From positions 79,764 to 143,763 of the forward strand of contig CAJKAR010000001.1 of the NCBI GenBank assembly GCA_905197955.1: a DNA stretch of 64,000 nucleotides, in the 5' to 3' direction. This document shows positions 16,978 through 56,516 of the stretch, one piece after another (positions within the stretch are counted from its first letter, which is position 1; the number at the start of each line of letters is the position of its first letter). Below the pieces are notes generated by a model, which worked only from the letters and a program-made list of their open reading frames with translations, was not told the DNA's origin and ran no database searches. Origin of the DNA: an uncultured Lentisphaeria bacterium. Lineage in GTDB: Bacteria > Verrucomicrobiota > Lentisphaeria > Victivallales > UBA1829. A program made the translations under genes and the position numbers.

Positions 16978-18024
16978 TCAGCTTTCCTGCAATGGCACTT
17001 TGATCGGGATCTGTTCCGGAGGCAGAGTTTTATCGTTTATCAGGGCGAACACTCTGTTCACGCCGGCTGCGGTATACTCCCGAATCGGGGGATCATAAGA
17101 CCATCCGCCGGGAACCGGAATGTTTTCCCGGTAAATGCCATTGTTGACAAGACGGCACTTCTCCTTCCGGTCAGCCCCAAGCGAATCGAAAATATTCAAT
17201 ACCTTGTCAACGAGGAACAAGGGATTCACCACGGCATCCACGGGAACACCGAGTTCCAGAAATTCTTTCAGTCTGGCAAGACTGCTTTCGCATCCGGAAA
17301 GAAAGAGTTTTTCATTCAGCGGCTGTCCGGCCTCCGCGAAAGTGCGGAGAAGAGAATCGCGCGCGGCGTTCCATGGTCTGCGGTCCGCCAGAAAAACAAC
17401 GTTCCGGCGGTGCTCCGCAAGAAGGCGGTTTGCGATTTCCGTTCCCAGCGCGTCCATGTCAAAATAGACACAATCGCAGCCGGGCATCGGTTCGCTTTTC
17501 ATCACGACCACAGGCAGGCCGTGCCGACGCAGAGCCAGAATGGTTTTTGCATCGACAGTCGGCCCCTCCCAGATCAGTCCATCGAGATCCTCCGCCAGAA
17601 TCTCCTTTACAATTTTCTCCCGATTTGTGGAAGTCAGGTTGATTATGTGGAGAACCGCGGGCCGATGAATCACCTGTTCCAGCGCCTGGGCAAGCACAGC
17701 TCCGAAAAAGATCTCGTAATGCACGACCATCCCGTCACCGAAAATAATGCCGATAATCGGCATTCCGTCCATATTCCCCCCCTTCTGACTGCCCTCGATA
17801 TTGGGGTTGATGAACGAACCGATTCCGGGACGACCGATGACGTAGCCGTCATCGGTCAAAGTTTTCATCGCCTTGCTGACGGTGGGCCGACTGCACCCGA
17901 ACTGCTTTGCCAGTTCCTGAGCCGTCGGCAGCTGGAGAGCCTTTCCACCCGCCCGGTGAATCCGATTCAGCACATAGCGCCGAATCTTCATATATTCTGC
18001 TGAAAAAACTGTTCTTTCTGCCAT
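16978..18024 (-). CDS. AraR-type chimeric regulator (GntR wHTH + LacI/GalR-type sugar-binding domain)
   Basis: N-terminal GntR-like HTH (LPTAQELAKQFGCSRPTVSKAMKTLTDDGYV) followed by a ~270-aa periplasmic-binding-protein-like domain. Confidence 0.7.
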   Translation of the reverse strand: MAERTVFSAEYMKIRRYVLNRIHRAGGKALQLPTAQELAKQFGCSRPTVSKAMKTLTDDGYVIGRPGIGSFINPNIEGSQKGGNMDGMPIIGIIFGDGMVVHYEIFFGAVLAQALEQVIHRPAVLHIINLTSTNREKIVKEILAEDLDGLIWEGPTVDAKTILALRRHGLPVVVMKSEPMPGCDCVYFDMDALGTEIANRLLAEHRRNVVFLADRRPWNAARDSLLRTFAEAGQPLNEKLFLSGCESSLARLKEFLELGVPVDAVVNPLFLVDKVLNIFDSLGADRKEKCRLVNNGIYRENIPVPGGWSYDPPIREYTAAGVNRVFALINDKTLPPEQIPIKVPLQES

Positions 18025-18106
18025 AATCCATCAGTTTCCACAAAACCTGTTTTCTCTTATGCGGTGATAAGATAAAACCGGGATTTTATTTTGCAAGCAT
18101 CAATCC

Positions 18107-21100
18107 TCATTTTTCTGCGATTTCGAAAAAGAGTGCCGGGCCGCCGGGCAGTTTCGCCGTATCCGCGCGGAGATAGAGAACGCCATCTTTTGCAGTTACG
18201 GGAATCTCACCCTGCCGTCTGCCGTTGAGATCGACGGCAAATGCCTTCATGCGGGCAGCATTCTTGTTTTTGACCGCAACGGAAAACACACCTGTCTCAT
18301 AGAGGATCGGCGTCTGTCCGAGTTTCTGCATCACGCGGCGCGTGGAGTCGTTGAAGACCATGCCGGTATTCAGAGCATCGGTAGCGTAGACAACCATCAG
18401 ATGCTTCGAGTTTTCCAGATCGGGCGCATTGTCGATCGACACAACCGCGAGATTTCCGTTCCGGCTCATCTCTTTGATTTCAAACGACGGCAGCTTCACC
18501 GTGGTTCCCGCCAGAGCACAGACGCCCTGGAGACGTTTCGTATTGATGCTCATGAAACACTTTTTCGCATTCAGGAAAAGTTCTCCCGTGGTACTTTCGA
18601 AAATTTCCTCCGCCGCATTGGTCCGGTTGGAAGCAGGAATCACGCCGCGTTTTTTCAGATCGCGCACAAGAGCATCCAGATCGAACACCGATTTCCCGCC
18701 ATCAATGATGCTGGAGAATCCGGCCGTACCGAGTGCGGAGGTCAGAACCGCACTGCCGCCGGTCCGTTTCAGGATCAGCTCGTTTTTGCGGACAGGGAAA
18801 ACCGGTTTTCCATCTTTGGAGTTCTCAACACGGAAGCGGCCCAGAAGCAGAAGACGCGTCTGTTCAGATCCCAATCCCCAGCGATAAGCATAGTTTTCCA
18901 GGACCTCCGGTTCGTTCAAGACGACTCGCCAGGTCACATCGCCCTCACGGACATCCCCGCGGGCATAGATAAAGTAGGCCAGGAACTCGCTGGCATACAT
19001 CACCGGGTCGTGCGTTCCACCAAACGGATGAAGTTTTGATCCGTGCGGCGCATACACCTGACTGATGAACGAGGTGATTCCATCCACTCCCTGAAGCGCG
19101 CCATACCCATCGGTCACAAACGCCTGTTCATAGCGATAGCGGTTCCAGAAGACATGCCCGTGTTCCGTAATGACATAGGGCTTGCCGGGCATCTGGTACG
19201 CATAGAAGCCGCGGGCGACATTTGCGGAAGTGAAGATGGAACTGCTCTGATCAATCGTCGAACCCGGCTGAATATAGTTGCTCGGATGCGCATGATACGA
19301 GTTCATGGCAATGAACTCCGCAGGCTCTCTCGCCATCACATACTGGATGGATTTGCCCATATTGAAGTTCGTGACCGGTCCCTTCCAGCCGATCTCGCGC
19401 AGATAGGAATGATAGAAATCAAAGATTTCGCGTTCCATCATACGGGTGAACTCATAGGAGTCGCGTCCGCGGGGAGAGGTTTCCATCATGTCGGTACCGC
19501 GGAAAACAGGAAGATCATCGAAATCCTTCCAGTCGTTTTTCACGTTCCATGCCGCCTTCAGCTTTTCGAACGATCCGTATTTTTTCCGGAGGAATTCCTT
19601 CCAGCGCGGCATCGCCTGCGGAATCTGTTTCGAGGTGCTGAAAATAAACTCCTGCTCATTGAAGCCGACAAGACACACCAGGACAGGATCGTCAATCAGA
19701 CGCATCTTCGTATAAGGATTCACGGTCAGAAGAACTTTCCGGGCACCCGCCTTCCAGTTTTCCTTGATATCATCATCGAAATAGATGAATTTCTTTGCAT
19801 CCTTATGATCTTTGCGCCAGGTCCAGTCCGCCCATGTGATGCCGGGATAGTATCCAAGATGGCTGGCGGCAACGTCAAGATTCAGATAAATTCCGTTGTC
19901 CTTCATGCATTTGATTGCATAGAAGAAGTTGTCGAACACATCCTCGGGGAAATCCAGTCCCTTCTGTTCCGCAAGTTCCCCTTCGATCATGTGCATACGC
20001 AGCATGTTGTAGCCTTTGTGGCGGAATGTGAGGACCATGTCGCGGATTCTTTCTTTATGATCCCGGGGAGTCTTGGAATACAGGAAATCGTAGTAGACCC
20101 GTTTTCCACCGCTGCTGTTCGGCTGAATAAAGGTGTTCGGGAAGAGTGCGGAGAAGAAACGAACCGGTTTTGCCGGATCCTTTTCAAAAGCAAACCGGCC
20201 ATCCTTGTTGACGATTACACGGCCGAAGGCCCCGGCGACTTCCCGCTTTGCCATTCCAAGATCCAATGCGGACCCCGGAATCACGCCAAAATATTTCGGG
20301 AAGGGAAAATTCTTCCAGATCGCATTTTCCTGCATGGTCTCGATTTCCGCCTTCGGAAATTCGTAGGCATTGAAAGAGAGAGTCGCAGCAAGAACGATCC
20401 AGACAGAGGTTTCCGAACGGGGAACAAAACGAATGGAACGAATGGTCCCGATTTCCGGCTTCAGCGGAAACACGGAGGCAAACACGCCGACGATTCCGCC
20501 GCTGGCATTCGTCCAGACCGACGCAGGATGAGCATTCGATCCCGGTTTCGCCATCCACCAGTCGTTGACATCCCGTCCGCCTTTGACCTCAAAGACCTGC
20601 TTCTGCCCATTTTTTCCCGTGACTTCGACGGTACCGATCACACCCTCGGACCCATAGGTCATCGTATGAAGAAGATAAAGGTACCGGCCTTCCGCGGACA
20701 TGCTCTCCAGATTCAGGAGAGCTTCCGGAAGACCATTCTGAAAGTTGCTGGATTTGAACGCCATCACGCTTTTTCCGTTGTTCTTCGACGGATCCACCGC
20801 CTTGAACGGAACATTCGCATAGCGATTCTGGGAGAAGACAAATTTGCGGGCATCGTTGTCAGGCCCCTGATCGGACCAGCCGCCTTTGCCGTCGCCGGCT
20901 TTCGGATCGGCATAGCCCATGTTCATCAGAGAGGCAAGATCCAGAAGTGTGTCAAGGATTTCCACCTTCAGATTCCGGAACAGAATAGTCCCGGCTGCGC
21001 GTTCGATTCCAAGAACGAAATCCGCTTTGTCGCAATCGCGCGGCACGGTGTATTCAAAGGAAAAGGTCTTCCAGTCATAAGTACCGGTTTCCGGATTCTG

Positions 21101-21922
21101 CTGCGGATAGAAGGTCTCCTTCGGGGTCCGGAGAGTAAACATGAACTTGCCGCCGGTTTTCGTGTCGCCGACAGGCTGGAGGTTTTCCGCCTTCGCCTCA
21201 ACCGAGACGCGTACGCGCTTCCTCTGAAGAGGTTTCGCCGGGATTCCCCGAATCACACCACGGTAATTGCCTTTTGCCGCTTTCGGTGCAGTAATCTCAA
21301 TTCCTGTTCCAACCAGGGCTTTTGCCTTTGTTCCAGGAGCAACCCACCAGTTTTCCAGAGAATTCGTCCGGTTCAGCGGATTGAAATAGTGCGCATCGAC
21401 TTTCGGGGACGATGCCAGAATTTCCACTTTAAGATTCCGGAACAGAATCTTGCCGGAAGCATGCTCAATTCCCAGTCCGAAATCGACCTTGTCGCAATTC
21501 TGGGGAACATCAAAATCCAGAGAATAGGTTTTCCAGTTATAACTTCCGAGATCCGGATTCTTCTGCGGATAGAAGGTCTCTTTCGGAGTCCGTACCGTAA
21601 ACATGAATTTACCGCCGGTTTTCGTATCGCCGACAGGCTGAAGGTTTTCCGCCTTCGCCTCGACCGAAACTCTCACGAACTTTCCGCGCAGAGGTTCTGC
21701 CGGAATTCCACGGACCACTCCCTGAAATTTTCCTTTGGCCTCTTTGGAAGCAATGATTTCAATGCCGTTTCCGGGCAGAGCCTTCGCTGCGGTTCCAGGA
21801 GCAACCCACCAATGCTTCAGCGAATCCGCCTGATTCAGGGGATTCGCATAGTGCACATCGGCGGCCGATACGCAGACACCCAACGCGCATAGTGCCGTCA
21901 GACAAAACAATTTCATACACAA
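18107..21922 (-). CDS. Secreted multidomain glycoside-hydrolase-like protein with two tandem CBM-like modules
   Basis: 1271 aa with a signal peptide (MCMKLFCLTALCALGVCVSA). Two ~150-aa paralogous beta-sandwich modules are followed by a TIM-barrel-like region (GYNMLRMHMIEGE...). Confidence 0.6.
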   Translation of the reverse strand: MCMKLFCLTALCALGVCVSAADVHYANPLNQADSLKHWWVAPGTAAKALPGNGIEIIASKEAKGKFQGVVRGIPAEPLRGKFVRVSVEAKAENLQPVGDTKTGGKFMFTVRTPKETFYPQKNPDLGSYNWKTYSLDFDVPQNCDKVDFGLGIEHASGKILFRNLKVEILASSPKVDAHYFNPLNRTNSLENWWVAPGTKAKALVGTGIEITAPKAAKGNYRGVIRGIPAKPLQRKRVRVSVEAKAENLQPVGDTKTGGKFMFTLRTPKETFYPQQNPETGTYDWKTFSFEYTVPRDCDKADFVLGIERAAGTILFRNLKVEILDTLLDLASLMNMGYADPKAGDGKGGWSDQGPDNDARKFVFSQNRYANVPFKAVDPSKNNGKSVMAFKSSNFQNGLPEALLNLESMSAEGRYLYLLHTMTYGSEGVIGTVEVTGKNGQKQVFEVKGGRDVNDWWMAKPGSNAHPASVWTNASGGIVGVFASVFPLKPEIGTIRSIRFVPRSETSVWIVLAATLSFNAYEFPKAEIETMQENAIWKNFPFPKYFGVIPGSALDLGMAKREVAGAFGRVIVNKDGRFAFEKDPAKPVRFFSALFPNTFIQPNSSGGKRVYYDFLYSKTPRDHKERIRDMVLTFRHKGYNMLRMHMIEGELAEQKGLDFPEDVFDNFFYAIKCMKDNGIYLNLDVAASHLGYYPGITWADWTWRKDHKDAKKFIYFDDDIKENWKAGARKVLLTVNPYTKMRLIDDPVLVCLVGFNEQEFIFSTSKQIPQAMPRWKEFLRKKYGSFEKLKAAWNVKNDWKDFDDLPVFRGTDMMETSPRGRDSYEFTRMMEREIFDFYHSYLREIGWKGPVTNFNMGKSIQYVMAREPAEFIAMNSYHAHPSNYIQPGSTIDQSSSIFTSANVARGFYAYQMPGKPYVITEHGHVFWNRYRYEQAFVTDGYGALQGVDGITSFISQVYAPHGSKLHPFGGTHDPVMYASEFLAYFIYARGDVREGDVTWRVVLNEPEVLENYAYRWGLGSEQTRLLLLGRFRVENSKDGKPVFPVRKNELILKRTGGSAVLTSALGTAGFSSIIDGGKSVFDLDALVRDLKKRGVIPASNRTNAAEEIFESTTGELFLNAKKCFMSINTKRLQGVCALAGTTVKLPSFEIKEMSRNGNLAVVSIDNAPDLENSKHLMVVYATDALNTGMVFNDSTRRVMQKLGQTPILYETGVFSVAVKNKNAARMKAFAVDLNGRRQGEIPVTAKDGVLYLRADTAKLPGGPALFFEIAEK
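20948..21862 (-). repeat. Tandem duplication (~460 nt x 2) encoding the two CBM-like modules
   Basis: aa 21-171 and aa ~175-325 align throughout. They share the block VRVSVEAKAENLQPVGDTKTGGKFMFT, then RTPKETFYPQ after one substituted residue (V/L). The DNA of the shared core (e.g. 21121..21215 vs 21583..21680) is visibly similar. Confidence 0.85.
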
Positions 21923-21936: not shown

Positions 21937-22692
21937 TTAATTATCGTATGCAACATACTGTCTCATATTCAAATTGCCACTGCCCCACATATTCGCGGAA
22001 TTATACGGATTCAACGTTGCAGCAGTCTTGGTTTCGACATGACCGTCAAAGAAAGTAACATTGGAAGCCATGTTGTTCTGATGACGGTACGCAATGACAT
22101 GCGCACTCGGATTCAGATTGGAAAAATCATAGGAAAGATAAGAAGACGGCAGGAAATCATCTTCTACCCAGAGTCCCGGCACCTCACCCCCGCAAACACC
22201 TTCCATGAAGATAATCTTCCGTGAAGCATTCCGGATTTTCGGCAATTTATAACAGTTTACCGAAAGATCAAAACTCATATTCATCATAGCATAGGTCTGA
22301 CCGGCGTCCTTGAATTGTCCACCCAGGCGGACATTCCGTGTCAGCGTCTCCGGACAAAGGAATGAAGACTGCCAGAAGGAAAGTCCCCAGGGAAACTCTT
22401 CCGCTCCACGGTGTTTTACTCCAACAGCAGAGAGAAAGTGCTGATTCAGATACCAGCGATGATTGGAATTCTCAGGAATGGACATCACAAACGGTACCCA
22501 CTGATCGTCGCTGTCCGAAGCATAGGTCAGTCCCCCCAGCCCCAGCTGCTTCATGGAACTGGTACACGAAATCTGACGCGCTTTCCCTCTCGCTGAATTC
22601 AGCGCAGGAAGAAGCATTCCTGCCAGAATTGCAATGATCGCAATTACGACCAAGAGCTCTATTAATGTGAAACTCTGCTTCCTTCGATTCAT
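21937..22692 (-). CDS. Pilin-like DUF1559 / H-X9-DG family protein (prepilin-type N-terminal helix)
   Basis: Start chosen at [36 protein letters not shown]-terminal FFDGHV motif. The stop is 14 nt from the start of the downstream CAZyme gene. Confidence 0.85.
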
Positions 22693-22755: not shown

Positions 22756-22784
22756 ATTATACAACATTCGACTTTTTTTGTCAA
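22756..22784 (-). promoter_or_regulatory. Consensus sigma70 promoter for the pilin-like/CAZyme/regulator operon
   Basis: On the minus strand: TTGACA (22779..22784), 17-nt spacer, TATAAT (22756..22761). AGGAGGG RBS before the ATG at 22692. Confidence 0.65.
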
Positions 22785-22927: not shown

Positions 22928-22956
22928 TTGCCAAAAACAGAAAAATATGCTATAAT
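22928..22956 (+). promoter_or_regulatory. Near-consensus sigma70 promoter for the LacI-led glycan locus
   Basis: TTGCCA (22928..22933), 17-nt spacer, TATAAT (22951..22956). Confidence 0.65.
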
Positions 22957-22960
22957 ATTT

Positions 22961-22980
22961 TTGTTCAAACGTTTTAACAA
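22961..22980. promoter_or_regulatory. LacI-family operator-like palindrome
   Basis: TTGTTCAAACGTTTTAACAA matches its own reverse complement at 18 of 20 positions and is centred on CG. It starts 5 nt downstream of the -10 box. Confidence 0.6.
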
Positions 22981-23016
22981 AATCAATAACGAACAAGAAA
23001 CCGCCGATTTTCAAAC

Positions 23017-24036
23017 ATGAGAGCTACGATTAAAGATATAGCAAAACGTGTGGGAGTTTCCTACTCTCTGGTCTCGCTGTACCTGAACAATCGTCCACTG
23101 GCGGCCCGGATTGCAGAATCGACCAAACGGAAAATTGATGAAGCGGTCAAGGAGCTGAACTATGCACCTTCCGCGACGGCACTGGCGCTGAAAAAAGGAA
23201 AAAGCAAAACACTCGGACTGGTCACGGCCGGTCTGTGCAGCGATTATGGAAGTTTCTTCGCACAGACCCTTCTGGATGAATGTTCCCGGTACGGTTATCA
23301 GCTGCTCATCGGAATCACCCATTACAATCCGGAAGAGGAACGACGGGTTCTTGCCAATCTGATCTCCCGGCAGGCAGATGGAATTTTTTATGGACTGCGT
23401 CTCTTTCCGGCGGATTTTTTGAAATCACTCGGACAGCAGAACTATCCGATTCTTCAACTGGGCTCCGCCTCTCCGGAGTTTCAGAGCGCGGGACTCGCAC
23501 TGGAAGAACAGCTCCGGCAATGTGCAGAAAAACTCCATGCCATCGGCTGCCGCCGTGTACTTATCGCACATGAATCCTGGGCAGAGTTTCTGGAAAAAGA
23601 GCTTGTAAAACATGGAATCGAAGTCGTTGGAGGACGACGCAGAACCGAAGCGGAAGATTTCTCCTATCTGACAGAAAATCTCCCTGACGCAGTCGCCGCC
23701 GATTCCAGCATCTACATCAAACTTCTGCGCAACCGATGCAGAGAACTTGGAATCCCGACTCCGTATCTCTGTTACAGCTACTCCCTGCCCTGCGATTTCA
23801 TTGACGATCCCCGGGTCGTTGCGGTAACGGTGACCGACTACAAAGTCAGACTTGCCGGAATCGTCCGCCGAATGATCCGGATGCTGGAAAATCCGAAGGA
23901 ACCGATCTGTCATCTGGAGGAACCGGTCCGTCTGATGAATCTTGAAGAGCTGCGGGAGTATCGTGCAACTCAGTTGAAAGATCCCTATTACGAGCCTTTT
24001 ATGACAAAATTAAAATACGAAGGGAAAGAATCATGA
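23017..24036 (+). CDS. LacI family transcriptional regulator
   Basis: N-terminal HTH ([25 protein letters not shown]...[17 protein letters not shown]) plus a sugar-binding domain. Confidence 0.9.
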
Positions 24037-24740
24037 AACGCGTCTGGAATTTTACATTGATAGAGCTTCTAGTCGTGATTGCAATTATTGCAATTCTTGC
24101 CGGACTTCTTCTTCCGGCCTTGAATTCTGCGCGAAAAACGGCAAAGAGCACCGCATGCAAGAACAATCTGAAACAACTGGGACTTGCCCTTTTCCAGTAT
24201 GACCAGACATTCGAGAGGCTTCCGGCCGGAGAAGACAAGGCGAATGGCTATCCTGAGAACCAGAAAATCTGGATGGGAAAACTCTGGGCGGCAAAACTGA
24301 TTTCCGTGGAAAAGGAAAGCACCAGCGGAGGAGCCAATTTCGGAAATGCCAAAATTCTCCGCTGCATGGATCCGCAGATCAGTTACGGGATGATCTCCAG
24401 TCTGGCACGTCTGGACGGGGTCACATCCGGCGGGGATCAGTATCAGAATTATGCCGATCACTATCTCAATACGGGCAGAGTGACCCGGCCGGCCAGCCGT
24501 TATCTGCTTGTGGAAAGCAACTGGGGCAGACCTGTCATACCTTCTTCGGACCGCCACTACTATCAGGTCCATGGACCTGGAGGAAGCACGGAGCTCCGCT
24601 CGGGCGGAGTCTGGTTGCCGGGGGGAAACTGCAATGTGGAATTTCTCGACGGGCACGTCGGAGAAATCTCCTATGCGATCAAAACCTCCACAGGTCCGGG
24701 ATGGCAAATCTACGGAGTCGGAATCGGCTGGCGGCAATAA
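24033..24740 (+). CDS. Pilin-like DUF1559 / H-X9-DG family protein
   Basis: [35 protein letters not shown]-terminal FLDGHV. ATGA overlap with the lacI-type gene. Confidence 0.85.
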
Positions 24741-24770: not shown

Positions 24771-27700
24771 ATGAAACGACATCTGCTCTTTGCCGGAGTC
24801 TTTTTCTGTACGGTACTGCTCTCCGCACAGGAACTGCTCTACACGCCGGGGCCGACCATGGGAATTGCTGTCAATCCAAAGGAGAACAATCTCTGGAAGA
24901 CCCGAATCATGGATGCATCACGGAAAATCCGGAACGAAGAACTCTTTGAAACGGCAGGCGATTTTTTCTCGATTCAATATGGGAAACCGTTTGTTTTCCA
25001 GTCGGATCTGTTCCGGGAATTCAAGATCAAGACTTCCGCGCCCTATCGGATCGCCGATGGAGCTCTTCAGTTCCGTACGGGAAAAAAAGGATGGAGCATG
25101 CTGTTCGGCGCCGAACCCGGCGATGAAAAAACACCCGCCATCCGTTTCGGCGCAGGATGGGGAAAGGATCGCTCCAATGCGTGGAGAATCGAACTGGAAA
25201 TCGAACAGGATGTCGAAAAGACAGACTGGATGATCTCCCGTTCCACCGGAGACTCCAAATTTTATACGAACAATCAGTTTTTCTCGGTCAAGGGAAAGGG
25301 TCCGCAGAAATTCATCCGGAAAATGGGCTGGATCGGCTATCCGGTTCCGCAGATCGCGCGGGGACTGAAAATCGAATGCCGCACACCCGGAGCCAATATC
25401 AGAATCCGTTCGATGCGGATCGTCCCCTTTTCCGGAAATCTGTTCTGGCGCAGGGAGATACAAATTCCGTTCCGCCCGATTGCCGCAAAACTCTCATGGA
25501 TGCACAAGACCGGGAATTACGATGTTTTCGTAAATGGAGTTAAAATCGCCGCGGGACAGCACATTCTCCGAACGGGCGTCGAAACGTTCGATCTGGAAAA
25601 ACAACTCAAACAGGGAAAGAACGTCATCGCCATCCGCGACCAGTTCTACGGCGGTCTCTCGCAGAACTCCTCCATCCAGCTTGAAGGAATTGTCATCGGG
25701 CGGAACGGAGAAACTCTGCGCATTCCCGGCGACCGGGAGTGGCGCTGGAGCTATCAGGCTCCGGAAGGATGGGAAAAAACAGACTTCGCCGCCACGACCT
25801 GGAAACCTCCCGTTCTCCGCCCCGCCGGAATCTCGTATCTGCCGAACAAAACGCAGATCTCCAGTGGATTTGCGCCCGATCACATGGGAATGCTCGATGT
25901 CCGCACGGAGGCAGTCAAATATCCCGTCTTCGACTATGACAAGGAGATTGCATGGCGTGTCCGTGTGCCGGCCGGAGTTCAGAACCCGGCACTGAAACTG
26001 GAAATCCGGGAAGCGGACAGCAATCAGCTTCAGGAGACTCTGATTCTGAAGGAGTCACATGTCAACGGAGATTTCCGGGAGTTCACAGTGCGTCCGAAGC
26101 TCCGCAAAACGGGAGCCTACCGCACCTTCTGGACACTGACCGCCGGCGGAAAAACACTCGACACCTGCCGGGGAGAAATGATTATCGCCGGACCGATCCA
26201 GCAGGATACCTTTGCGCTCAAGGATTTTGAACAGGAACTGGAAAAGCGTCTTCAGCTGGTTCAGAAGATCGACTGCACCGATCCGAATCCCGCGCCGGAC
26301 ACCTTTCTGGATCACACAGGCAAGTATACCAAACCGATCCTCAATCCGGGAAAAGTCGTCACCCGGAACGGCATGACGTATCGGGAAACCGGCAGCGGAC
26401 TGTTGGATTATTTCTGCTATAAACTCAATCTGCCCGCCACCGGAGAAGCGATGATCGCGGAACTGGTCATCCCCGACGATGCGGACCGCTATATCTACAG
26501 CGCTGTTCTGGAAACGATTCCGGCCGGCATGGAACACAACACTCCGCCGCTCGGAAGCAAGGCGTGGCCGAACGCCAGCGGAACCGTCTCCACAGGAGAC
26601 CTGTATCCGCTGAGCAACGGAAAGAAAAAATTCCGCTACGTCTTCTTCCCCGGGACAAAAAACACAACGCTGATCGTTCAGAACGGACGCGCCGGAATTC
26701 CGGCGGCAGTCTGCGAAATCAACATCTACGCGGTCAAAGGCGGACTTCCCGCTCTCAGAATTCCGGAGACCGACCGGACATACGGGAATCATAACGAACG
26801 ACTCATCTTTACTGCATGGGGATCGTACCGGGACGCGCTCGCCTACGGAACGGAAGCGCATCTGGTGCAGTACTACGACGGCGCCTGGCTCAACGCCTAT
26901 CGGGCGATTGCGCGGAAAATTCAGTTTCTCCGTTTTCAGGGACACAATGCCAGTGTCGAAGGGGCTTTCATGTACGAGAAGGGAGTCTTCTCTCCGCGGC
27001 ACTCCCAGATTGTGCTGAACAACGACCGCTTTGATTACTATTACGCTCTTCTGAAACTTTACAGGCATAACGGTATCAAAACCTTTGTCGGATTCGAATA
27101 TATGCGTTCCTCGGCCCTCGACGCAATGGGAGCGTTCGACACCAGCGATGCACAGGTACATTCGGGGGAAAAACGTTCCGTCTACATGATCGACCGTTTC
27201 GGGCGGCAGGTGGTCGGCTACCTCGGCATGGGACTCAACTGTATGAATCCGGTGGTCTGGGGCACGGTCACGGACCTGCTGAAAGAGCTCTATGAGCGCT
27301 ATGACGGAATCGGCAGCGTGGAAGGACTCGTCACTCTGAACGGAAGCTGGTGGCTGCCCGGTTTCCCTTCGTACAGCGGAATGGAAGCTTCGGAAGTCGG
27401 ATACGATGACGATTTCGTGGAACAGTTCGAACATGACACAGGAATCCGTCTCAACCTTCCCCGCACCGGAGCGAACCGCTTTGCCGCTCGCTATGAACTC
27501 CTGACCGGAAAATACAAACACCAATGGTTCGAATGGCGCGGAAAAAAGATTCGGGAAAAACTGCTCGAAATGCGGAAAACAATCAGTTCCGGCAAGCAGA
27601 AATGGAAACTCTTCTCCTGGCCGGCCAAAGCCACGGCGGAACGGAACGCATTCAACACATCCGGCATCCGTCCGGAAGTCCGCGATGAATACATGGAACG

Positions 27701-29090: not shown

Positions 29091-29848
29091 TGAACACAAA
29101 ACTTCAAATGATCGCCGGAGCTCTATGCGCAGCAGTGCTTCTTTCCGCAGACACGCTTCTGGACGTGGAACCGGGAACGGTTCTTCAGGATCGCTGGAAC
29201 AGAAAACTGCATAAGAATTTCTCATCCGGATCCAGCAAAACCGGAGTCAAAGCCATTCAGGAGAAGGGAAAAACGATCGCCCGTTACCAGTCCGGCTCCA
29301 GCACGCTGTATCAGATTTCGGGAAGCGAATCGTGCGGAACGGAGAATCTGACATTCACGGTTCTGGCGCGTGCGGAAGGAAAATCGGGAGAGGGATATCT
29401 CCTTTATGCCGGAGCGGGAAGTCTTGCAAAACCCGGACTCCGTCTCGGCCTGCGCGCAGAAAAGGATGGTCTGCAGGCTTACGGACTGCTGGTTGCGGCA
29501 TCCTCCAGCGAAAAAGAAAAAAAATTCGCCTCCGTCCGGATGAAAAAGGATCTCCGGATCGAACCGGGCAAGTGGACCGTTTTCACGCTTGCGGCCAACC
29601 GATCCGGTGATCTTCAGCTTTTTGTAAACGGGGAACTGGCAGCGGCAAAATCAATCCGCCAGTTTGAAAAGGAGAATCTTTACCCGAAGCAGCCGCTCTT
29701 TTCCACACTTCTTCCCAAAGGAAAAGAGAATGCGGAACAGCCGATCCGAATCGATATTGCTGGCATCATCATCCGCAATGAACTCATGAGTTCCGCGGAA
29801 ATCCTCCGGGAAGCGGAAGATTTGCTGGATGAAATGGAGAAAAAATAA
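29090..29848 (+). CDS. Secreted LamG/concanavalin-like domain protein
   Basis: TAATG overlap with the upstream gene. Signal peptide MNTKLQMIAGALCAAVLLSA. LamG-like pattern (WTVFTLAANRSGDLQLFVNGEL). Confidence 0.5.
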   Translation: MNTKLQMIAGALCAAVLLSADTLLDVEPGTVLQDRWNRKLHKNFSSGSSKTGVKAIQEKGKTIARYQSGSSTLYQISGSESCGTENLTFTVLARAEGKSGEGYLLYAGAGSLAKPGLRLGLRAEKDGLQAYGLLVAASSSEKEKKFASVRMKKDLRIEPGKWTVFTLAANRSGDLQLFVNGELAAAKSIRQFEKENLYPKQPLFSTLLPKGKENAEQPIRIDIAGIIIRNELMSSAEILREAEDLLDEMEKK

Positions 29849-29851
29849 TTT

Positions 29852-31285: not shown

Positions 31286-31301
31286 CAAACGGAGGATCGG
31301 A

Positions 31302-32513: not shown

Positions 32514-32865
32514 AAAATCAGCGTCCCGACCGGCAGTACGGTACGGCGGGAGCTGCAAGAATGTTTTCTCCCCCCGCGGCCTCCCGCAGAACCGCACCGA
32601 ATTTCGACAGGAACAGTTGAAAAATAGATTGGAATGCGTTAGAGTACGGGAAATGGAGCTTCCCGATGCGGATTGATGACAGAAGATGCTGACTCCGTGT
32701 TTTCTTCAGGAAAGGAATGCTGTTCCGAATGACGACACGGACAAGAATCTCTGGCGGGAAAAATGTCAACGCATTTTGCTGTTTTGAGTCTCCCGCCATC
32801 CCGCATCGGCGCGCAGCTCCCCCGCAGAAACAACACGGACTGAAGGAAAGAAAGACAGAGAACTT

Positions 32866-34852: not shown

Positions 34853-34885
34853 GGGAAGCACGGAACCCCGTGCTTCCCGTTTTTT
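34853..34885 (+). terminator. Rho-independent terminator
   Basis: 10-bp stem (GGGAAGCACG 34853..34862 pairs with CGTGCTTCCC 34869..34878) followed by GTTTTTT. Confidence 0.85.
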
Positions 34886-34909: not shown

Positions 34910-34937
34910 TTGACTTTTCATATTTTTCTGGTATAAT
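34910..34937 (+). promoter_or_regulatory. Sigma70 promoter with extended -10
   Basis: TTGACT (34910..34915), 16-nt spacer, TGgTATAAT (-10 at 34932..34937). It is followed by the palindrome TTTACTGGTAAA (34937..34948), a GntR-type GT..AC operator candidate. Confidence 0.65.
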
Positions 34938-46139: not shown

Positions 46140-46140
46140 A

Positions 46141-50088: not shown

Positions 50089-51108
50089 ATGGCAAATGAA
50101 CGTAAAAAAATCACAATGATTGATATCGCCAGAGAAGCAAATGTTTCTCAGAGCACGGTCTCTCGCGTCATTAACCAACAGCCCGGCATCAATGAAGCCA
50201 AATACCGGAAAGTCATGGAAGCCATGAAACGGCTTGGTTATGCACCTCCACAATCCGCAGGCTCTCCCCGCAAGACCATCTGTCTTGTCATCTGCCCGCT
50301 GCCGGAACAGAAAGATATTCTGGAAATGAGTTTCAATATCCAGATGCAGGAGGGTGTGCGAGCGGTTCTGAACGCTCATGATGCGGATTTCATGCTTCTA
50401 GTCAAACCGTACGGAACCGAAACGCTGGATCTGCCTCCGGAAAAAATGCGTCAGATTTCCGGTTTTATTCTTCTGCTGGGTTCTCTTGACTCACCGAAAC
50501 TGCGGAAAGAGCTGGAACATGCGGGAATACCTTATGTGATTGCTCTGGGGGGTACTCTGGCTCGCTTTCCTGCCGCCTGCGACATTATTTGTCCGGACGA
50601 ATTCAATGCAGCTCATCAGATATGTGATTATCTCGAAGCAAATGGCAGAAAACGCATCGGTTTTCTGCTTTCCAGGATCTTTGCCCATCGTCTCGACGGA
50701 TTCCGGCTGGAAGTCATGAAACGCAACTCCCTGGAACTGCGCGAAAGCGACATTGTCCTGCTGGAAACAACCGATAACAAAGACCACATCGAAGCAGCCT
50801 ATCACTATCTTCAGCGAGGGGATCTGCCCGATGCCCTGATCGTCAGTTTTCACGGAGCTGCCGTCCTGATTCGTTCCATTTTCAGCTTCAACGGCATCCG
50901 AGTTCCCGAGGATGTCACGATCGTTTCCTATGCACATACAAAAGAGCAGGATCAGATTCCCTGCATTCTCCAGCGCGCCTATCTGCTCGGAACCAAATCT
51001 GCAAGAAGAATTCTGGAAAAACTCGAAGAACCGGATGATGTGCCGGATACCATACTCATCCCTTCAGAACTCATCAATACAAAAAGAAAGCAGGAGGCAT
51101 TGTCATGA
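50089..51108 (+). CDS. LacI family transcriptional regulator
   Basis: [47 protein letters not shown]. Confidence 0.9.
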
Positions 51109-51839
51109 AATCAGGCATTCATAGATTCACTTTAATCGAACTTCTAGTTGTCATTGCAATTATTGCAATTCTTGCCGGAATTCTTCTTCCGGCCTTGAAC
51201 AGTGCCAGAAGCAAAGCGCAGGCGATTGCATGTCTCTCCAACCTGAGGCAAACAGGTCTTATCGTGCATCAGTACGCAGATGCCTTCCATGAGTTTTTCC
51301 CATTTGCCAACACATGGGGAACTGCACTGAACGGACAGCCAACCTGGAATCGACAGCTCTTCAATGCAGGACTTGTCGCAAAAAATAAAATCGGCAACTA
51401 TCCGGAAACCGAAATTCCTTATGGAATGAGTTCTCCCGGAGTTCCCGGCGGAATCTGGCGCTGTCCTTCTGTGGCGCCGCATCAGCACACTGGCAGCGGA
51501 ATGACTCACTACGGCATGAATTCCTCTTTTGAACCGAAAGAAAATCCGCCCTGGTTCATCAAGCGCAGTTCCTTTCCGCAGATCAGGCCGGGGATTCATC
51601 GTTCCGCTTCGGAATTTTTCCTGATGACGGACAATGATGCCATGCCGGACAACGACAATACTTTTGCGTATGTCGTTTATGCCGCGGAAACGCCAACCAT
51701 CGCAGACCCGACCGCCCGGAAAAAAACAATCGGCTACCGTCATCTGGGAGCGGCCAATGTCCTTTTTGCGGATGGACACGCGGCAGGATGGCGTTATGCA
51801 GGTTCCCTTGCACGGAAATACTGGGCGTACTACAACTGA
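51105..51839 (+). CDS. Pilin-like DUF1559 / H-X9-DG family protein
   Basis: [36 protein letters not shown]-terminal H-X9-DG reads directly ([13 protein letters not shown]). ATGA overlap with the lacI-type gene. Confidence 0.88.
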
Positions 51840-51851: not shown

Positions 51852-54293
51852 ATGAAAAAACATACTCTTTCTGCAACACTCCTATCCCTCTCTCTTCCTT
51901 TTCTCGCCATATCGGAAAATAACGGGATCCTTTATAACTGTGAAGAATTCGATCCACATGGATATCCTCATGGATGGGGATTCTGGTGTGACAAGCAGTC
52001 TCGGAAACCAGACTGGAAAGTTGTTTCTGATGCCGCGGAAGGACGTCAGGCACTCCAGATCACCTTTCACGGCTGTAAAAAATTTCAGGGAGTTTCCATT
52101 AATCTACCGAGCCTGCCGCAGAATGCGGAGTCCTTCACGTTCTGGATCAAAAATATTTCCGGGAAACCGCCATCCAATCTGGAACTGGTTGAAGTAAGTG
52201 CTGACGGCAAAGGACGGGAGTTTTTTACAGCGTCCTTCCCCCTGCCGGAACCAGGCTTCTGGAAACAAATCACCGTCCCTCTCTCAGCGTTCCGCCATAC
52301 ACGATCCGAAAATATGCCAAATGGGAACCGGAAATTCGACCGGGAACGCAAAAGTATTCTCCGACTGATCGGTTATACCAGAGATGGCGGAACTCTGCTG
52401 ATGGATGATCTCCGCTGGAGCACATCTAACAAAACATCCTCAACCGTATCGCCCGGAGGAACCAGAGGACAAGCGGAGCGAAAAGGAAACCTGCTTCCGG
52501 GAGACAGCAGTTTTGAAACAGGAGCCGGACCATGGATGAATTTTTCCGGAGTCAGGCAACTCCATGCTAAAGAAGGAGATGGGTTCCACGGATGGAGCTG
52601 TCTGGAACTGCCTCCTCAAACAAGCATGGTCATGTGCAAATGGATCTGGAACCTGTTTCAAGAGGGGAAAACGTATGTATTCTCCTTCTATGCAAAAGGA
52701 GATCCGGGAGAGGTTTTAAATCTCTCGGTCATCACGCTCAAATGGCGCTGGCTGAAGAGTCAGACGTTCCAACTGTCGCCGGAATGGAAACGCTATTACG
52801 CGATCATTCCGCCGCAGAAGAACTGTGAGACCGCATACATCGGCTTCCGCAGATTTCATCCGAAAGGAAGCGTACGGATCGATGCTCTCCAACTGGAAGA
52901 GGGACTCAAACCGACTCCGTACAAGCCCTCGGAAGCACTCAGTCTCTTCAGCTCCATCGGGCATCCCGGCGAAATAGGAACCGAAGGCAAAGCAATCTCT
53001 CTGACAGTATCCGTCCGGAACAATTTCATTCCGAAAAATCTCCTTCCTCTCACCCTTCAGGCGGAACTTCCGGGAAAATGGCGGGAGAACCGGACTCTGC
53101 ATCTCCAGCCGGATCAGCTCCGGCGTCTGACCATTCCAATTCCATCCGCAAAAGAAACCGGATACTATCCGGTAAAACTGACTGTCAGAGATAAAAACGG
53201 GACTGTAATCAAACAGCAAACGTCTCCATTCGTCATTGCTCCTCCATTTCCTCCGGTTCAAAAAGACATCGGTTTTTTCGGCATTCAGGATAGTCCCGTT
53301 CCCAAAGAAGCGCTTCCCAAAATCGGAGTTTCCCGTCTCCGCAGCGGAGGTCCCCGATGGCTGGAATCAGAACCTTCGCCCGGCTCTTTCAGAAATATGG
53401 AAGAAGCCCAAAACAAAGACTTCCATGGCTTGAACGTCCAGTACTCCCTCGGAGACATCACACGGGTACCCGAATGGGCAAAACAGTCTGGAAGCAATAT
53501 GGCGAAACCATCTGCCATCCGTCCCTTTGCGGAAGCATTCATCCGGAACAAACCCGCGGTCGTCCGCTGCTGCGATTTCCAGAACGAACCGGATCTCACT
53601 CTTCTCCGCATGAAACAGATGACAACCGAAAAAGCCGTTCAATATTATACAGATCTGCTGAAAGAAATTCATCCGGTCATGAGGCAATACGGCACGAAAC
53701 TCATGATAAACTGCTCCGGAAATGGTGTGGAATTCGCAGCAAACGTTTTTGCAAAAGCAGCGGATTTCTTCGATATCTATGCCCCGCATCCATACACCTA
53801 TCCGCGTTCCATCGGTATGGACGGCCGTTACTGCGCTTCTCCGGAAAGCGGTGAACTCCTCCGAAAACTGAACGACGCAAAAGAACTCATCCGCAAATAC
53901 GGCAGGAACCAGACTCTTGCAATTGGAGAACTCGGCTGGGCGCTCGATGGAAGCGCTCCGTTCGATTCCCCGCAGGCAAAACAATCTGCGGCCTACCTTG
54001 CACGCACATTTCTACTGTCACGAACGGTTCCTGAGTGCTCCTGGCTGATCTGGTACTCCGGTCTGGGATGGCCGGAAAACGGAAATTATGAATATGGTCT
54101 CTGGCGAAATGACAATGGAATCCGTCCCCTTCCCTCTGCGGCGGCATACGCACAGGCTGCACGCGAAATGGAGGGCGGAACGGAATTCAGACTCGCCGCC
54201 GATGGAGATATCAAAATCGTCCGCTGGAAAAAGGATGGATTCGACAAAACCGCGGTATGGAATACAGATGAAAATATGCGAGAACTGCTGTAA
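51852..54293 (+). CDS. Secreted CBM + TIM-barrel glycoside-hydrolase-like protein, N-terminal 813 aa of an IS-interrupted gene
   Basis: Signal peptide MKKHTLSATLLSLSLPFLAIS. The stop codon TAA (54291..54293) abuts the IS terminal repeat. The same reading frame resumes at 55470. Confidence 0.65.
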   Translation: MKKHTLSATLLSLSLPFLAISENNGILYNCEEFDPHGYPHGWGFWCDKQSRKPDWKVVSDAAEGRQALQITFHGCKKFQGVSINLPSLPQNAESFTFWIKNISGKPPSNLELVEVSADGKGREFFTASFPLPEPGFWKQITVPLSAFRHTRSENMPNGNRKFDRERKSILRLIGYTRDGGTLLMDDLRWSTSNKTSSTVSPGGTRGQAERKGNLLPGDSSFETGAGPWMNFSGVRQLHAKEGDGFHGWSCLELPPQTSMVMCKWIWNLFQEGKTYVFSFYAKGDPGEVLNLSVITLKWRWLKSQTFQLSPEWKRYYAIIPPQKNCETAYIGFRRFHPKGSVRIDALQLEEGLKPTPYKPSEALSLFSSIGHPGEIGTEGKAISLTVSVRNNFIPKNLLPLTLQAELPGKWRENRTLHLQPDQLRRLTIPIPSAKETGYYPVKLTVRDKNGTVIKQQTSPFVIAPPFPPVQKDIGFFGIQDSPVPKEALPKIGVSRLRSGGPRWLESEPSPGSFRNMEEAQNKDFHGLNVQYSLGDITRVPEWAKQSGSNMAKPSAIRPFAEAFIRNKPAVVRCCDFQNEPDLTLLRMKQMTTEKAVQYYTDLLKEIHPVMRQYGTKLMINCSGNGVEFAANVFAKAADFFDIYAPHPYTYPRSIGMDGRYCASPESGELLRKLNDAKELIRKYGRNQTLAIGELGWALDGSAPFDSPQAKQSAAYLARTFLLSRTVPECSWLIWYSGLGWPENGNYEYGLWRNDNGIRPLPSAAAYAQAAREMEGGTEFRLAADGDIKIVRWKKDGFDKTAVWNTDENMRELL

Positions 54294-55148: not shown

Positions 55149-55414
55149 TCGTTTTTTTTTAGCTCGACAGTCAACTCCCCAATGGTTTCTTTGAGCTTGC
55201 GGTTTTCGCGTTCCAGGCGTTCCCGGACATGATCCACTCCTCCTCGTTCAAACAGTTTGCATCCATCGGACAGCAACTGGTCACGCCACTTGTAGTACAT
55301 GCCTTGCGTAATGCCGTGCTCGTTGCACAACGTGCTGATACTGCAATCGCCTTTCAGACCTTGCAACACGATCGCAAGCTTTTCCTTACCGGTCCATTGT
55401 TTCTTTGCGCCCAT
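55142..55414 (-). CDS. IS3-family transposase OrfA (HTH)
   Basis: 90 aa. WTGKEKLAIVLQGLKGDCSISTLCNEHGITQGMYYKWRDQ plus a leucine-zipper-like tail. Confidence 0.9.
   Translation of the reverse strand: MGAKKQWTGKEKLAIVLQGLKGDCSISTLCNEHGITQGMYYKWRDQLLSDGCKLFERGGVDHVRERLERENRKLKETIGELTVELKKNDW
55152..55160 (-). other. Programmed -1 ribosomal frameshift site of the IS
   Basis: A9 run on the minus strand (CTAAAAAAAAACG). Slipping by -1 reads ...ELKKKRLVRRHGMN... into OrfB. Confidence 0.75.
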
Positions 55415-55469
55415 CGATGACTCCTTTCTAATACTCTCTTAATTTAGCACTCTTTTCAATGGGGGCAAT

Positions 55470-56516
55470 ATACTGCCTTTCGAGGTTCCTTCCGGAACTA
55501 TCATCCGTGATCTGTACGGGGCTCCGGTACAAGGCAACCGTTTTTCCCTCGGAGAAGCCCCATTTTATCTGAGCATCGCGGAGGGTAAAGGAGACGTTCT
55601 TCTTTCCACTCTGCTGAAAAGTATTGCAAAACAGATCCCCATACAGATTCATCCCTCTCTGAAAACTCTCTCGGAACTGCATCTTCTCGTCCGGAACAAC
55701 CTTCCGCATGAATGGAAAGGAACGTTTTCTGCGGAAATGGGAAAAAAACGCATGCTGAAACTCAACGCCAAGGAAATCAGCACTCTTGTTCTTCCCGTCG
55801 CCAAAGCAAAAGCGGGAGTTCCTTTCCGGACAACGCTTTCCATTTGCGACAGAGAAGGAAACATATTTCATGTTCCGATCACTCTTCCAGCACCTCTGGC
55901 AATCCGGAAAACCGAAATCAAAGACTGGAAAACCTTCGATTTCCAGAATGCGCGACCTCAGATCATCCTGAAAGACAGGTCCGATGTATATCCACCAGAT
56001 CCATTTATCCAGTGGAACGGTCCGAAAGATCTCTCTGCCAGAATTTTTCTCGCCTGGGACAGCAGATTCTTCTATCTGATGGCGGAAATCACGGATGACG
56101 ACCACTGCAATCCCGCCCGCAATGCCGATCTCTGGAGAGGCGATTCCATTCAGTTCGCATTCGACACCGAAAACGATGCGGTCTCCAATGCCGGATACGA
56201 CAATAACGATTACGAATTCGGAGTCGCTTTCGATTCCCCTCTCTGGTGCTGGCACACTCCGGCAGGAAAATCTCCTGGAGAAGTTCCCGGAGTCAAGCCG
56301 CTGATTGAAAAGTCCGGAAACAAGATGATTTACCGCCTCGCCATCCCGTGGAAAAATCTCGCGCCGCTTAAACCGGAAGCGGGACGAGTCTTCGGGTTCT
56401 CCCTTGTTGTTCACGATCGTGACGGTTCCGTCCGCAACTACTACATGGCATTCGGACAAGGAATCTCCAACGGGAAAAATCCCTCCACCTTCCGGAAACT
56501 GGTCCTGACCGATTGA
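55470..56516 (+). pseudogene. C-terminal fragment of the IS-interrupted CAZyme gene (beta-sandwich + CBM9-like module)
   Basis: The frame is open from the IS edge, with no stop between 55443 and 56516. It reads ILPFEVPSGTIIRDLYGAPVQGNRFSLGEAPFYL..., and the first ATG is only at 55737. CBM9-like block: RIFLAWDSRFFYLMAEITDD...GDSIQFAFD. Confidence 0.7.

Follow-up and report, generated by a model that had tools for sequence, protein, structure and literature searches.

Pilin-like genes paired with genes for giant exported proteins in regulator-led cassettes of a Lentisphaeria bacterium

The DUF1559 (PF07596, 'SBP_bac_10') or H-X9-DG (TIGR04294) pilin-like proteins are among the largest uncharacterised paralogue expansions of bacteria, with 67-79 copies in published genomes: 74 in Rhodopirellula baltica and 68 in Planctopirus limnophila (PMC2754498, PMC10632474), and 79 PulG-type genes in Fimbriimonas. 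A stretch of 64,000 nucleotides (64 kb) from an uncultured Lentisphaeria bacterium (contig CAJKAR010000001.1; hereafter the window) contains four pilin-like genes related to this family, in cassettes that combine the gene of a sugar-type regulator, the pilin-like gene and the gene of a giant exported protein. The genome is probably from a gut; named homologues come from Victivallis, Victivallaceae and Lentisphaeria and, together with the residues at the prepilin cleavage site described below, point to a Victivallales-like member of the Lentisphaerota. The recurring regulator/pilin-like/giant architecture is real and non-random, some of its details having been overstated in the first-pass annotation of this DNA. 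The reading that we prefer, and hold tentatively, is that the pilin-like protein is specific to its operon and, as a pseudopilin-like partner, helps to export the giant exoenzyme or display it at the surface, working with a machine of T2SS (type II secretion system) or T4P (type IV pilus) kind encoded elsewhere.

Like the window proteins, DUF1559/H-X9-DG proteins have an N-terminal helix, a cysteine after the helix and a C-terminal N..F.DGH motif. The window proteins differ in their shorter, divergent heads, in the replacement of Gly or Ala at position -1 of the prepilin cleavage site by Ser, Asn, Phe or Arg, and in being encoded in regulator-led operons, a link found in Lentisphaerota only. 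The first-pass statement that the family has no demonstrated function holds in the literature searched on DUF1559, H-X9-DG and pseudopilins of the Planctomycetes-Verrucomicrobia-Chlamydiae (PVC) bacteria, which yielded passing mentions only, apart from one report. In Verruconatronum alginivorum (2026), a pulG-like pseudopilin, one of 67 paralogues, is encoded in an operon that the authors describe as upregulated by alginate; growth on alginate also raises the expression of a second pseudopilin, encoded outside the gene clusters, and export of the alginases is attributed tentatively to the T2SS (PMC13274419). The first of these resembles the window genes as a pilin-like paralogue inside an operon of exported polysaccharide lyases, but belongs to another phylum (Opitutales) and lies between PL29 lyase genes and an SSF transporter gene rather than directly after a regulator. 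That report mentions the gene in passing, with no analysis of pairing, conservation or cleavage site, and the gene is likened to those of the window by description only; the basic association has nevertheless been noticed recently elsewhere, so the core idea is not wholly new. A planctomycete study has found T2SS up-regulated on fucoidan. Not found described in the literature searched were the Lentisphaerota regulator-pilin-giant cassette, the persistence of the pair through regulator replacement, a quantitative enrichment for large exported neighbours, and the lineage-wide loss of Gly-1.

The pseudopilins of T2SSs (GspG major, GspH-K minor) share with the window proteins a class-III-like N-terminus with Glu+5, and the N-terminal 45-78 residues of the window proteins align to TIGR01710 (GspG) and TIGR01708 (GspH); some database homologues carry the name 'type II secretion system protein' or that of the 'GspH family'. 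Export of folded exoenzymes, the task of the T2SS, is the role proposed here for the pilin-like proteins. The window genes differ from those of T2SS pseudopilins in lying outside a gsp operon, in encoding a head of ~190 aa (that of GspG is ~100 aa), and in being many paralogues, each beside a cargo gene; the T2SSs described so far are not known to have pseudopilin genes linked to those of their cargo.

The polysaccharide utilisation loci (PULs) of Bacteroidota are likewise substrate-specific clusters in which a regulator gene is joined by genes for exported glycan-active proteins, with one paralogous 'signature' component of the surface or envelope per locus. Their regulators are hybrid two-component systems or extracytoplasmic-function sigma/anti-sigma systems, whereas those of the window are of LacI or GntR/periplasmic-binding-protein (GntR/PBP) type, and the signature gene of the window cassettes is pilin-like, there being no SusC/TonB-dependent receptor, SusD or transporter. 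Pfam scans found no match to a TonB-dependent receptor, SusD or Plug domain anywhere in the window, and no transporter or outer-membrane receptor gene lies in the four cassettes (16978-54322). Without SusC/D, the window loci are not PULs of the Bacteroidota type. In cellulolytic Firmicutes, glycan-binding type IV pili are likewise expressed together with fibre-degrading enzymes, but from single canonical loci with their own assembly genes, not as one paralogue per enzyme operon; Caldicellulosiruptor is a further case of glycan-binding type IV pili. No sequence relationship between the window pilins and these pili was found beyond the N-terminal helix. The extracellular proteome of Ruminococcus flavefaciens is reported to contain type IV pili alongside cellulosome components (PMC3672088).

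Four cassettes in one window

Pilin-like genes had been placed at 22692 to 21937 on the minus strand (A), 24033-24740 (B), 36064-36870 (C) and 51105-51839 (D), and a six-frame motif search of the window found prepilin-type N-termini in exactly four ORFs, which are these. A regulator gene of LacI or GntR/PBP type adjoins each of them, and a large protein of 813-1439 aa with a signal peptide is encoded 12-30 nt 3' of the pilin-like gene, with one small gene between the two in cassette C. Permutation of gene order within the window gave p=0.0014 for all four pilin-like genes touching a regulator; demanding in addition a protein of 800 aa or more, no further than two genes away, brought the joint p to 2e-5. 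All four large proteins have a Sec-type signal peptide.

Co-transcription, as first proposed, is supported by overlaps, by short gaps (9-30 nt) with ribosome-binding sites (RBSs), and by a single promoter and terminator. A Shine-Dalgarno sequence lies 5' of all pilin-like and enzyme genes in the four cassettes, and the ATGA overlaps of regulator and pilin-like gene at 24033-24036 and 51105-51108 are present in the sequence. The AT-rich gaps are equally real (intergenic 32-36% GC, against ~52% overall). A near-consensus promoter for every cassette had been claimed: 12 of 12 positions match in A and 11 of 12 in both B and C, but only 9 of 12 in D. The regulators are of the types proposed, namely LacI family at 23017-24036 and 50089-51108, a GntR helix-turn-helix (HTH) with Peripla_BP, an AraR-like architecture, at 34981-36054, and a GntR HTH at 16978-18024. 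By these signs, sugar-type regulators are co-transcribed with proteins of carbohydrate-type domains (malectin, NPCBM, LamG-like, MGH1-like, weak GH42 and weak CBM4_9 across the cassettes), as in a glycan-utilisation operon in the broad sense.

A fifth regulator-led operon (41344-47616) lacks both a pilin-like gene and any product with a signal peptide, and is the only such regulator-led operon in the window. After the regulator it encodes a 347-aa protein of no known family, an SIS protein, a 245-aa protein likewise of no known family, a GFO/IDH/MocA protein and a GH20 protein. The pilin-like genes of the window therefore accompany exported giants, not regulators as such.

41271-41299: promoter of the fifth operon, 12/12 consensus
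41344-42417: regulator of the fifth operon, Peripla_BP_3

Cassette A, on the minus strand, has the regulator as its last gene, and its pilin gene is divergent from the LacI gene of cassette B.

22756..22784, minus strand: promoter TTGACA-17-TATAAT, 12/12 consensus, the best of the region, 64 nt 5' of the pilin A start
21937..22692, minus strand: pilin-like A, 251 aa (N_methyl 35.6 bits; TIGR02532; DUF1559 21.3 bits, below cutoff)
18107..21916, minus strand: enzyme A, ~1269 aa, exported, signal peptide MKLFCLTALCALGVCVSAADV
16978..18024, minus strand: regulator A, 348 aa, GntR-type HTH (PF00392 38.7 bits; weak LacI-type C-terminal matches)

The pilin A start at 22692 has an AGGAGG RBS, and the protein has Ser at -1 and H-X11-DGH. 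Enzyme A, first thought to start at a TTG at 21922, more likely starts at the ATG at 21916. It has a weak GH42 match (Pfam, E 7e-7), and a CBM-like stretch matches endoglucanase 8ag9 in a PDB sequence search.

Cassette B is the longest, with further genes between the enzyme and a terminator.

22928..22956, plus strand: promoter TTGCCA-17-TATAAT, extended TG, 11/12 match
22959..22982: near-perfect 24-bp palindrome TTTTGTTCAAACGTTTTAACAAAA, beginning 3 nt past the -10 hexamer
23017..24036, plus strand: LacI-family regulator B (PF00356 50.7 bits), its stop overlapping the pilin B start (ATGA)
24033..24740, plus strand: pilin-like B, 235 aa (DUF1559 43.4 bits, profile positions 2-49; TIGR02532)
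24771..29090, plus strand: enzyme B, 1439 aa, exported, signal peptide, C-terminal malectin (PF11721 E 5.5e-21)
29090..34845, plus strand: rest of the operon, LamG-like and NPCBM proteins (exported), then a 403-aa protein and a 659-aa MGH1/trehalase-like six-hairpin protein (neither with a signal peptide)
34853..34878, plus strand: intrinsic terminator, 11-bp stem with 8 GC pairs and a T-run

The palindrome is a plausible candidate for the LacI operator, and no comparable palindrome was found before cassettes C or D. The RBS GGAAGGAG precedes the enzyme B ATG at 24771, and the terminator is strong, as had been noted. The operon B proteins without signal peptide (31302-32513 and 32866-34845, the latter MGH1/trehalase-like) would need oligosaccharide import.

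In cassette C, the regulator ends 9 nt 5' of the pilin gene and a PHP-domain gene intervenes before the giant.

34910..34937, plus strand: promoter TTGACT-16-TATAAT, TG, 11/12 match
34981..36054, plus strand: regulator C, GntR HTH with LacI-type periplasmic-binding-protein fold, AraR-like (PF00392 58.6 bits, PF13377 52.2 bits)
36064..36870, plus strand: pilin-like C, 268 aa (TIGR02532 21.1 bits; no DUF1559 match)
36887..37549, plus strand: PHP-domain protein, no signal peptide (weak PHP and PHP_C matches)
37575..40925, plus strand: protein C, 1116 aa, exported, signal peptide, no assigned family

Cassette D is closed by a hairpin at 54290-54322, at the end of the gene of its giant.

50028-50056, plus strand: candidate promoter, 9/12 match only
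50089..51108, plus strand: LacI-family regulator D (PF00356 58.3 bits, with Peripla_BP)
51105..51839, plus strand: pilin-like D, 244 aa, ATGA overlap (TIGR02532; TIGR04294 20.8 bits, cutoff 19; DUF1559 22.8 bits, just below cutoff)
51852..54293, plus strand: protein D, 813 aa, exported, signal peptide, CBM-like (CBM4_9 24.7 and CBM11 18.6 bits, both below cutoffs)

PDB sequence searches on the four giant proteins matched almost nothing. The glycoside hydrolase assignments made at first survive weakly for A (GH42), B having malectin only and D sub-threshold carbohydrate-binding modules; the label 'lyase-like' for the 1116-aa protein C finds no support, with no match in Pfam or the PDB sequence search. 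On their domain matches, three of the four giants have putative catalytic roles only.

Cassette D, which had been drawn as reaching 56516, ends at ~54322; the rest is an IS3-family element and a separate CBM9 ORF. That the element splits the cassette D enzyme was considered and rejected, because the 813-aa ORF closes with a stop and hairpin of its own, at a distance of 94 nt from the transposase ORF. Copies of an 11-nt direct repeat, ATACTCTCTTA, occur at 54381-54391 and 55431-55441; the left one overlaps the orfB stop codon, and so is not an ordinary target-site duplication. For the CBM9 ORF the frame stays open upstream as far as 55443, at the boundary of the element, and the insertion may have truncated a gene of which this ORF is the 3' remnant.

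54387-55414, minus strand: IS3-family element, orfA 55414-55142 (HTH_Tnp_1) and orfB 55148-54387 (rve)
55737-56516, plus strand: CBM9 ORF, no signal peptide

Long antisense ORFs at 16924-18003 (plus strand), 24069-24782, 36824-37711 and 51144-51863 (minus strand) face, respectively, regulator A, pilin B, the junction of pilin C with the PHP gene, and pilin D; with their lower codon-usage scores, they were treated as non-coding. Two further genes of the window are unlinked to the pilin-like genes: 1513-4977 (minus strand) encodes a 1154-aa Ser/Thr protein kinase fused to leucine-rich repeats, and 59884-62541 (minus strand) a protein of 885 aa that matches nothing in Pfam and whose N-terminus resembles a signal peptide.

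The pilin-enzyme pair beyond the window

The pilin-like gene and the enzyme gene remain together in related genomes across 37-82% pilin identity. Cassette B (LacI, pilin, malectin giant, LamG, NPCBM) recurs with other flanks at 82% and 52% pilin identity, and LamG and NPCBM genes are syntenic with those of cassette B in loci L002-L005. In L086, where the pilin is 37% identical to that of cassette B (29% in the head), the next gene encodes a malectin protein of 1468 aa, 34% identical to enzyme B over its full length; the regulator there is of GntR/PBP type, with no detectable similarity to LacI B, and still overlaps the pilin gene by 4 nt. A pilin 50% identical to A, followed by a giant 70% identical to enzyme A, lies in L091, where the genes in front are a divergent AraC gene and one for GH123, and a downstream GntR regulator is lacking. 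The cassette of L088 consists of a GntR/PBP regulator, a pilin 67% identical to C and a giant 76% identical to protein C; the PHP gene is missing, so that the pilin gene directly precedes that of the giant. Other relatives lie 5' of genes for large proteins, among them a GH2 protein of 1775 aa and one that is heparinase-like. The proposed tie between each pilin-like gene and the enzyme gene after it is supported as specific and conserved, since the pairs persist through changes of flank and regulator. On these comparisons the pilin-enzyme pair is the conserved core of the cassette and the regulator is exchangeable. The head of pilin B is under purifying selection: between the window and L003 its ratio of nonsynonymous to synonymous substitution rates (dN/dS) is 0.10, with 0.12 in the enzyme and 0.13 in LacI.

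The window has single copies only, and elsewhere pilin-like genes form tandem pairs or repeated 'pilin then giant' units (L006, L012, L017, L024, L038, L053, L059, L071, L075 and L089). L089 (1713-11084), for instance, has a 225-aa pilin with a protein of 1230 aa after it and, further on, a 251-aa pilin with one of 770 aa.

An independent sample was assembled by pattern scan from 80 PVC loci centred on pilin-like genes, one genome per species (29 Lentisphaerota, 51 other phyla), in which 101 pilin-like genes were compared with 685 control genes from the same loci; genes were called with an in-house ORF picker scored on codon usage, with 5' trimming, validated on the window. The downstream same-strand neighbour has at least 600 aa for 46% of pilin-like genes and 15% of controls (p=4e-6), an effect that is strong in Lentisphaerota (61% versus 18%) and weaker elsewhere (32% versus 14%). 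A signal-peptide-like N-terminus is found on 59% of downstream neighbours and 21% of controls (p=1.4e-6), and among proteins of at least 600 aa on 79% and 29%. Pfam matches for 54 downstream neighbours include eight families with several members, seven of them of carbohydrate-active enzyme (CAZyme) type (DUF4838, Laminin_G_3, Hepar_II_III_C, GH123, DUF4962, CBM9 and CBM4_9), the eighth being Peripla_BP_2; none of the 12 multi-member Pfam families of 108 control proteins is of CAZyme type. Singletons among the neighbours include a sulfatase, a GH5 protein and a rhamnosidase, and also housekeeping and non-glycan exported proteins. The predicted enrichment of pilin-like genes before exported glycan-type proteins is therefore seen in the 80 loci, where the neighbours are larger, more often exported and richer in CAZyme types.

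The link to regulators, for which one class only (LacI/GntR-PBP) was detected in these loci, is narrower. Such a regulator is the upstream same-strand neighbour of 6/98 pilin genes and 6/625 controls (p=0.0025), and of the 13 regulators whose locus extends to a downstream neighbour, 6 have a pilin gene in that place. By phylum, a regulator directly precedes 6/38 of the pilins of Lentisphaerota and 0/60 of those of Verrucomicrobiota, Planctomycetota and Armatimonadota. The expected enrichment downstream of LacI/AraR-type regulators is thus found in Lentisphaerota and was not seen in the other phyla, and the term 'PVC-type' does not suit the architecture where the regulator is concerned. Too few related pairs occurred in different loci to give power to a comparison of head with neighbour similarity across the 80 loci, and targeted context look-ups were made instead.

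It is very improbable, and we disfavour the view, that the pilin-like genes have no specific function with their neighbours, being members of an expanded mobile family in a CAZyme-rich genome whose adjacencies reflect hitch-hiking or promoter sharing. The family is indeed enormous (53,405 clusters at 50% identity, E<=1e-30), many members in the 80 loci adjoin housekeeping genes (PGI, glutamate dehydrogenase, fatty-acid synthesis), and a regulator stands beside only a minority. Adjacency by chance, however, does not sit well with the within-window permutation (p=2e-5), with the enrichment of neighbour size, export signal and regulator adjacency over controls from the same loci, with the survival of pilin-enzyme pairs through regulator replacement and flank turnover, or with genes that are translationally coupled and a dN/dS of 0.10.

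The pilin-like proteins and their altered cleavage site

The shared N-terminus, divergent C-terminal domains and DGH ending first described for the four proteins are confirmed: F8-L23 is invariant in all four, overall identity is 31-39%, and all end in F-x-DGH. A conserved cysteine follows the N-terminal helix in each. The N-terminal DNA of the four genes differs at synonymous positions, so that the identity is kept by selection at the protein level; recent gene conversion as its source is rejected on the same ground. TIGR02532 matches all four (21.1-22.6 bits; cutoff 16.3), and PF07963 gives 35.6 bits for A, 20.4 for B, 19.2 for C and 21.1 for D (cutoff 21.2). Each N-terminus is class III-like, with a short basic leader, Phe+1, Glu+5 and ~20 hydrophobic residues. 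GspG itself is a poor match: the equivalog model TIGR01710 gives 25-37 bits against a cutoff of 88.85, with model positions 2-78 of 134 aligned, and no Pfam families of a gsp operon were found among the scanned ORFs of the window.

The label DUF1559, applied at first to all four, is borne by B alone (43.4 bits; PF07596 cutoff 23.3), and there over positions 2-49 of 268 only; A (21.3 bits) and D (22.8 bits) fall below the cutoff and C has no match. The H-X9-DG motif is complete in D (TIGR04294), A having H-X11-DG and B and C only DGH. When profiles of the heads alone were aligned with hhalign (77 relatives of B against 55 pilin-like heads of Verrucomicrobiota, Planctomycetota and Armatimonadota), however, the probability was 99.9% (E 6e-35) over 168 columns, with N..F.DGH shared, which places the window proteins in the DUF1559/H-X9-DG superfamily even where single-model thresholds fail. 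No dedicated NCBIfam model was found behind the name 'DUF1559 family PulG-like putative transporter'. Invariant or near-invariant across the family alignment are C42, C111, W80, Y118, H180, N201 and D206-G207-H208; C42 and C111 probably form a disulphide, and the His/Asp cluster might be a metal site, by analogy with the calcium site of GspG.

An AlphaFold2 model of pilin B, built from the 77-sequence alignment (pLDDT 83, pTM 0.80), has a 52-residue N-terminal helix and a small head of sheet plus helices. Foldseek matched it in the PDB to type IV pilins only (best 6xxd, probability 0.96, E 0.14), with no match to a lectin or CBM fold, and a PDB sequence search with the 77-member profile matched the N-terminal helix of pilins and GspG and nothing in the head domain. 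These results bear on the first-pass suggestion of glycan capture on a fibre, in which the pilin-like proteins would polymerise into or cap a type IV-like filament and their heads bind the cognate polysaccharide, holding or retracting it towards the cell in a role like that of SusD or of the cellulose-binding pili of cellulolytic Firmicutes. The suggestion finds no support in the head domain: neither the fold search just described nor the Pfam scans of the pilin-like proteins gave a carbohydrate-binding match. Precedents exist in the cellulose- or xylan-binding type IV pili of Ruminococcus, Fibrobacter and Caldicellulosiruptor, and uptake of dextran in association with fibres has been proposed for Planctomycetes. 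Each glycan locus of the window does have a distinct head co-expressed with enzymes, the head co-diverges with enzyme type in the B lineage, the aromatic residues W80 and Y118 are conserved, and an uptake route is missing, operon B encoding cytoplasmic glycosidase-like proteins where the four cassettes have no transporter or outer-membrane receptor. Capture nevertheless explains neither why the pilin-like gene adjoins the first exported enzyme specifically, rather than lying anywhere in the locus, nor why partners outside Lentisphaerota include exported proteins that are not CAZymes (sulfatase, DUF1501 and lamin-tail domain), of which the DUF1501 and lamin-tail partners have no glycan link; with Gly-1 missing, filament formation is itself uncertain. 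We consider such a fibre quite unlikely.

Prepilin peptidase canonically requires Gly, or sometimes Ala, at -1. The window proteins have Ser (A), Asn (B), Phe (C) and Arg (D) there, with leader/mature boundaries at M(N)RRKQS in A, MRKTF/FTLIE in C and MKSGIHR/FTLIE in D.

22671-22692, 24033-24053, 36064-36081 and 51105-51128, window: codons of the pilin N-termini around the -1 site

Among homologues in the 80 loci, Gly is at -1 in 3/38 from Lentisphaerota, whereas Gly or Ala is at -1 in 58/63 from the other phyla (Verrucomicrobiota, Planctomycetota and Armatimonadota). To judge from these residues, the canonical prepilin-peptidase site seems to have been lost across this lineage, and either the lineage peptidase is relaxed in specificity or the proteins are unprocessed.

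The second of these alternatives leads to an explanation without a filament, in which the prepilin site has decayed in Lentisphaerota and the pilin-like proteins stay uncleaved in the inner membrane as bitopic proteins, their heads serving the giant enzyme in the periplasm as chaperone, anchor or activator, with no pilus machine. The -1 residues (Gly in 3/38 against Gly/Ala in 58/63; Ser, Asn, Phe and Arg in the window), the lack of pilus or T2SS genes nearby and the one-enzyme pairing expected of a dedicated partner all agree with a tether of this kind. A plain anchor, however, would not keep 16 consecutive residues and Glu+5 invariant in paralogues that are ~30% identical elsewhere; the same N-terminus occurs in phyla that keep Gly/Ala-1, and the heads are homologous across phyla, which argues for a shared mechanism; and the peptidase of the lineage may simply tolerate other -1 residues. 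We regard the tether as unlikely. Invariance of the N-terminal helix, Glu+5 included, among paralogues is what docking into an assembly machine would lead one to expect, not a simple membrane anchor, and the strict Phe+1, Glu+5 and following 16 residues argue that the proteins engage such a machine.

A possible adaptor for giant exoenzymes

Under the reading that we tentatively prefer, in which the pilin-like protein serves export or display of its neighbour, each cassette would be a sugar-responsive operon whose first structural gene encodes a pseudopilin-like membrane protein and whose next large gene encodes a Sec-exported giant glycan-active protein. A breakdown product would release the LacI- or GntR/PBP-type repressor, so that the pilin-like protein and the enzyme are produced together; the invariant N-terminal helix would put the pilin-like protein into the inner membrane and dock it into the cell's single type II secretion/type IV filament machine, encoded elsewhere. 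The divergent head would then recognise the partner enzyme, or an enzyme-substrate complex, with the result that the giant protein crosses, or is held at, the outer membrane. The pilin-like paralogues would on this account be a library of cargo-specific adaptors. An adaptor for secretion or display, also raised in the first-pass annotation, fits the data better than glycan capture does; the mechanism is still inferred.

Several observations weigh against this adaptor role. Gly-1 is absent from all four window proteins and from 35/38 Lentisphaerota homologues, which leaves processing and fibre assembly uncertain, and no T2SS/T4P machinery or prepilin peptidase genes were found by Pfam among the scanned ORFs of the window. 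Relatives of pilin C at 38-39% identity adjoin large proteins unrelated to protein C, so that head similarity does not always track the partner and the pairing is not absolute. A LacI/GntR-PBP regulator is nearby for only 16-32% of the Lentisphaerota pilin-like genes sampled, and the enrichment in the 80 loci rests on a simple in-house gene caller and a signal-peptide heuristic, in loci ascertained through the pilin-like gene.

A broader form of the adaptor proposal, rather doubtful at present, is that Lentisphaerota, and more loosely other PVC bacteria, possess tens to hundreds of interchangeable adaptors that program one T2SS/type IV machine. If so, each adaptor would be encoded just before its own giant exoenzyme and induced with it, permitting export or surface mounting of cargo whose size or diversity defeats generic recognition; as a marker of glycan loci, the pilin-like gene would be to PVC bacteria what SusC/D is to Bacteroidota; and the loss of Gly-1 would point to an unusual prepilin peptidase specificity or to assembly independent of processing.

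PVC bacteria play an important part in breaking down complex glycans in the gut and the ocean, without the SusC/D logic by which the loci of Bacteroidota are interpreted. The missing Gly-1 raises the question of how prepilins are processed in this lineage, and the pilin-like gene offers a practical genomic marker for the glycan-utilisation operons of Lentisphaerota. One-to-one pairing of pilin-like and giant protein under a sugar regulator gives the DUF1559/H-X9-DG family a concrete, testable role, that of cargo-specific export or display.

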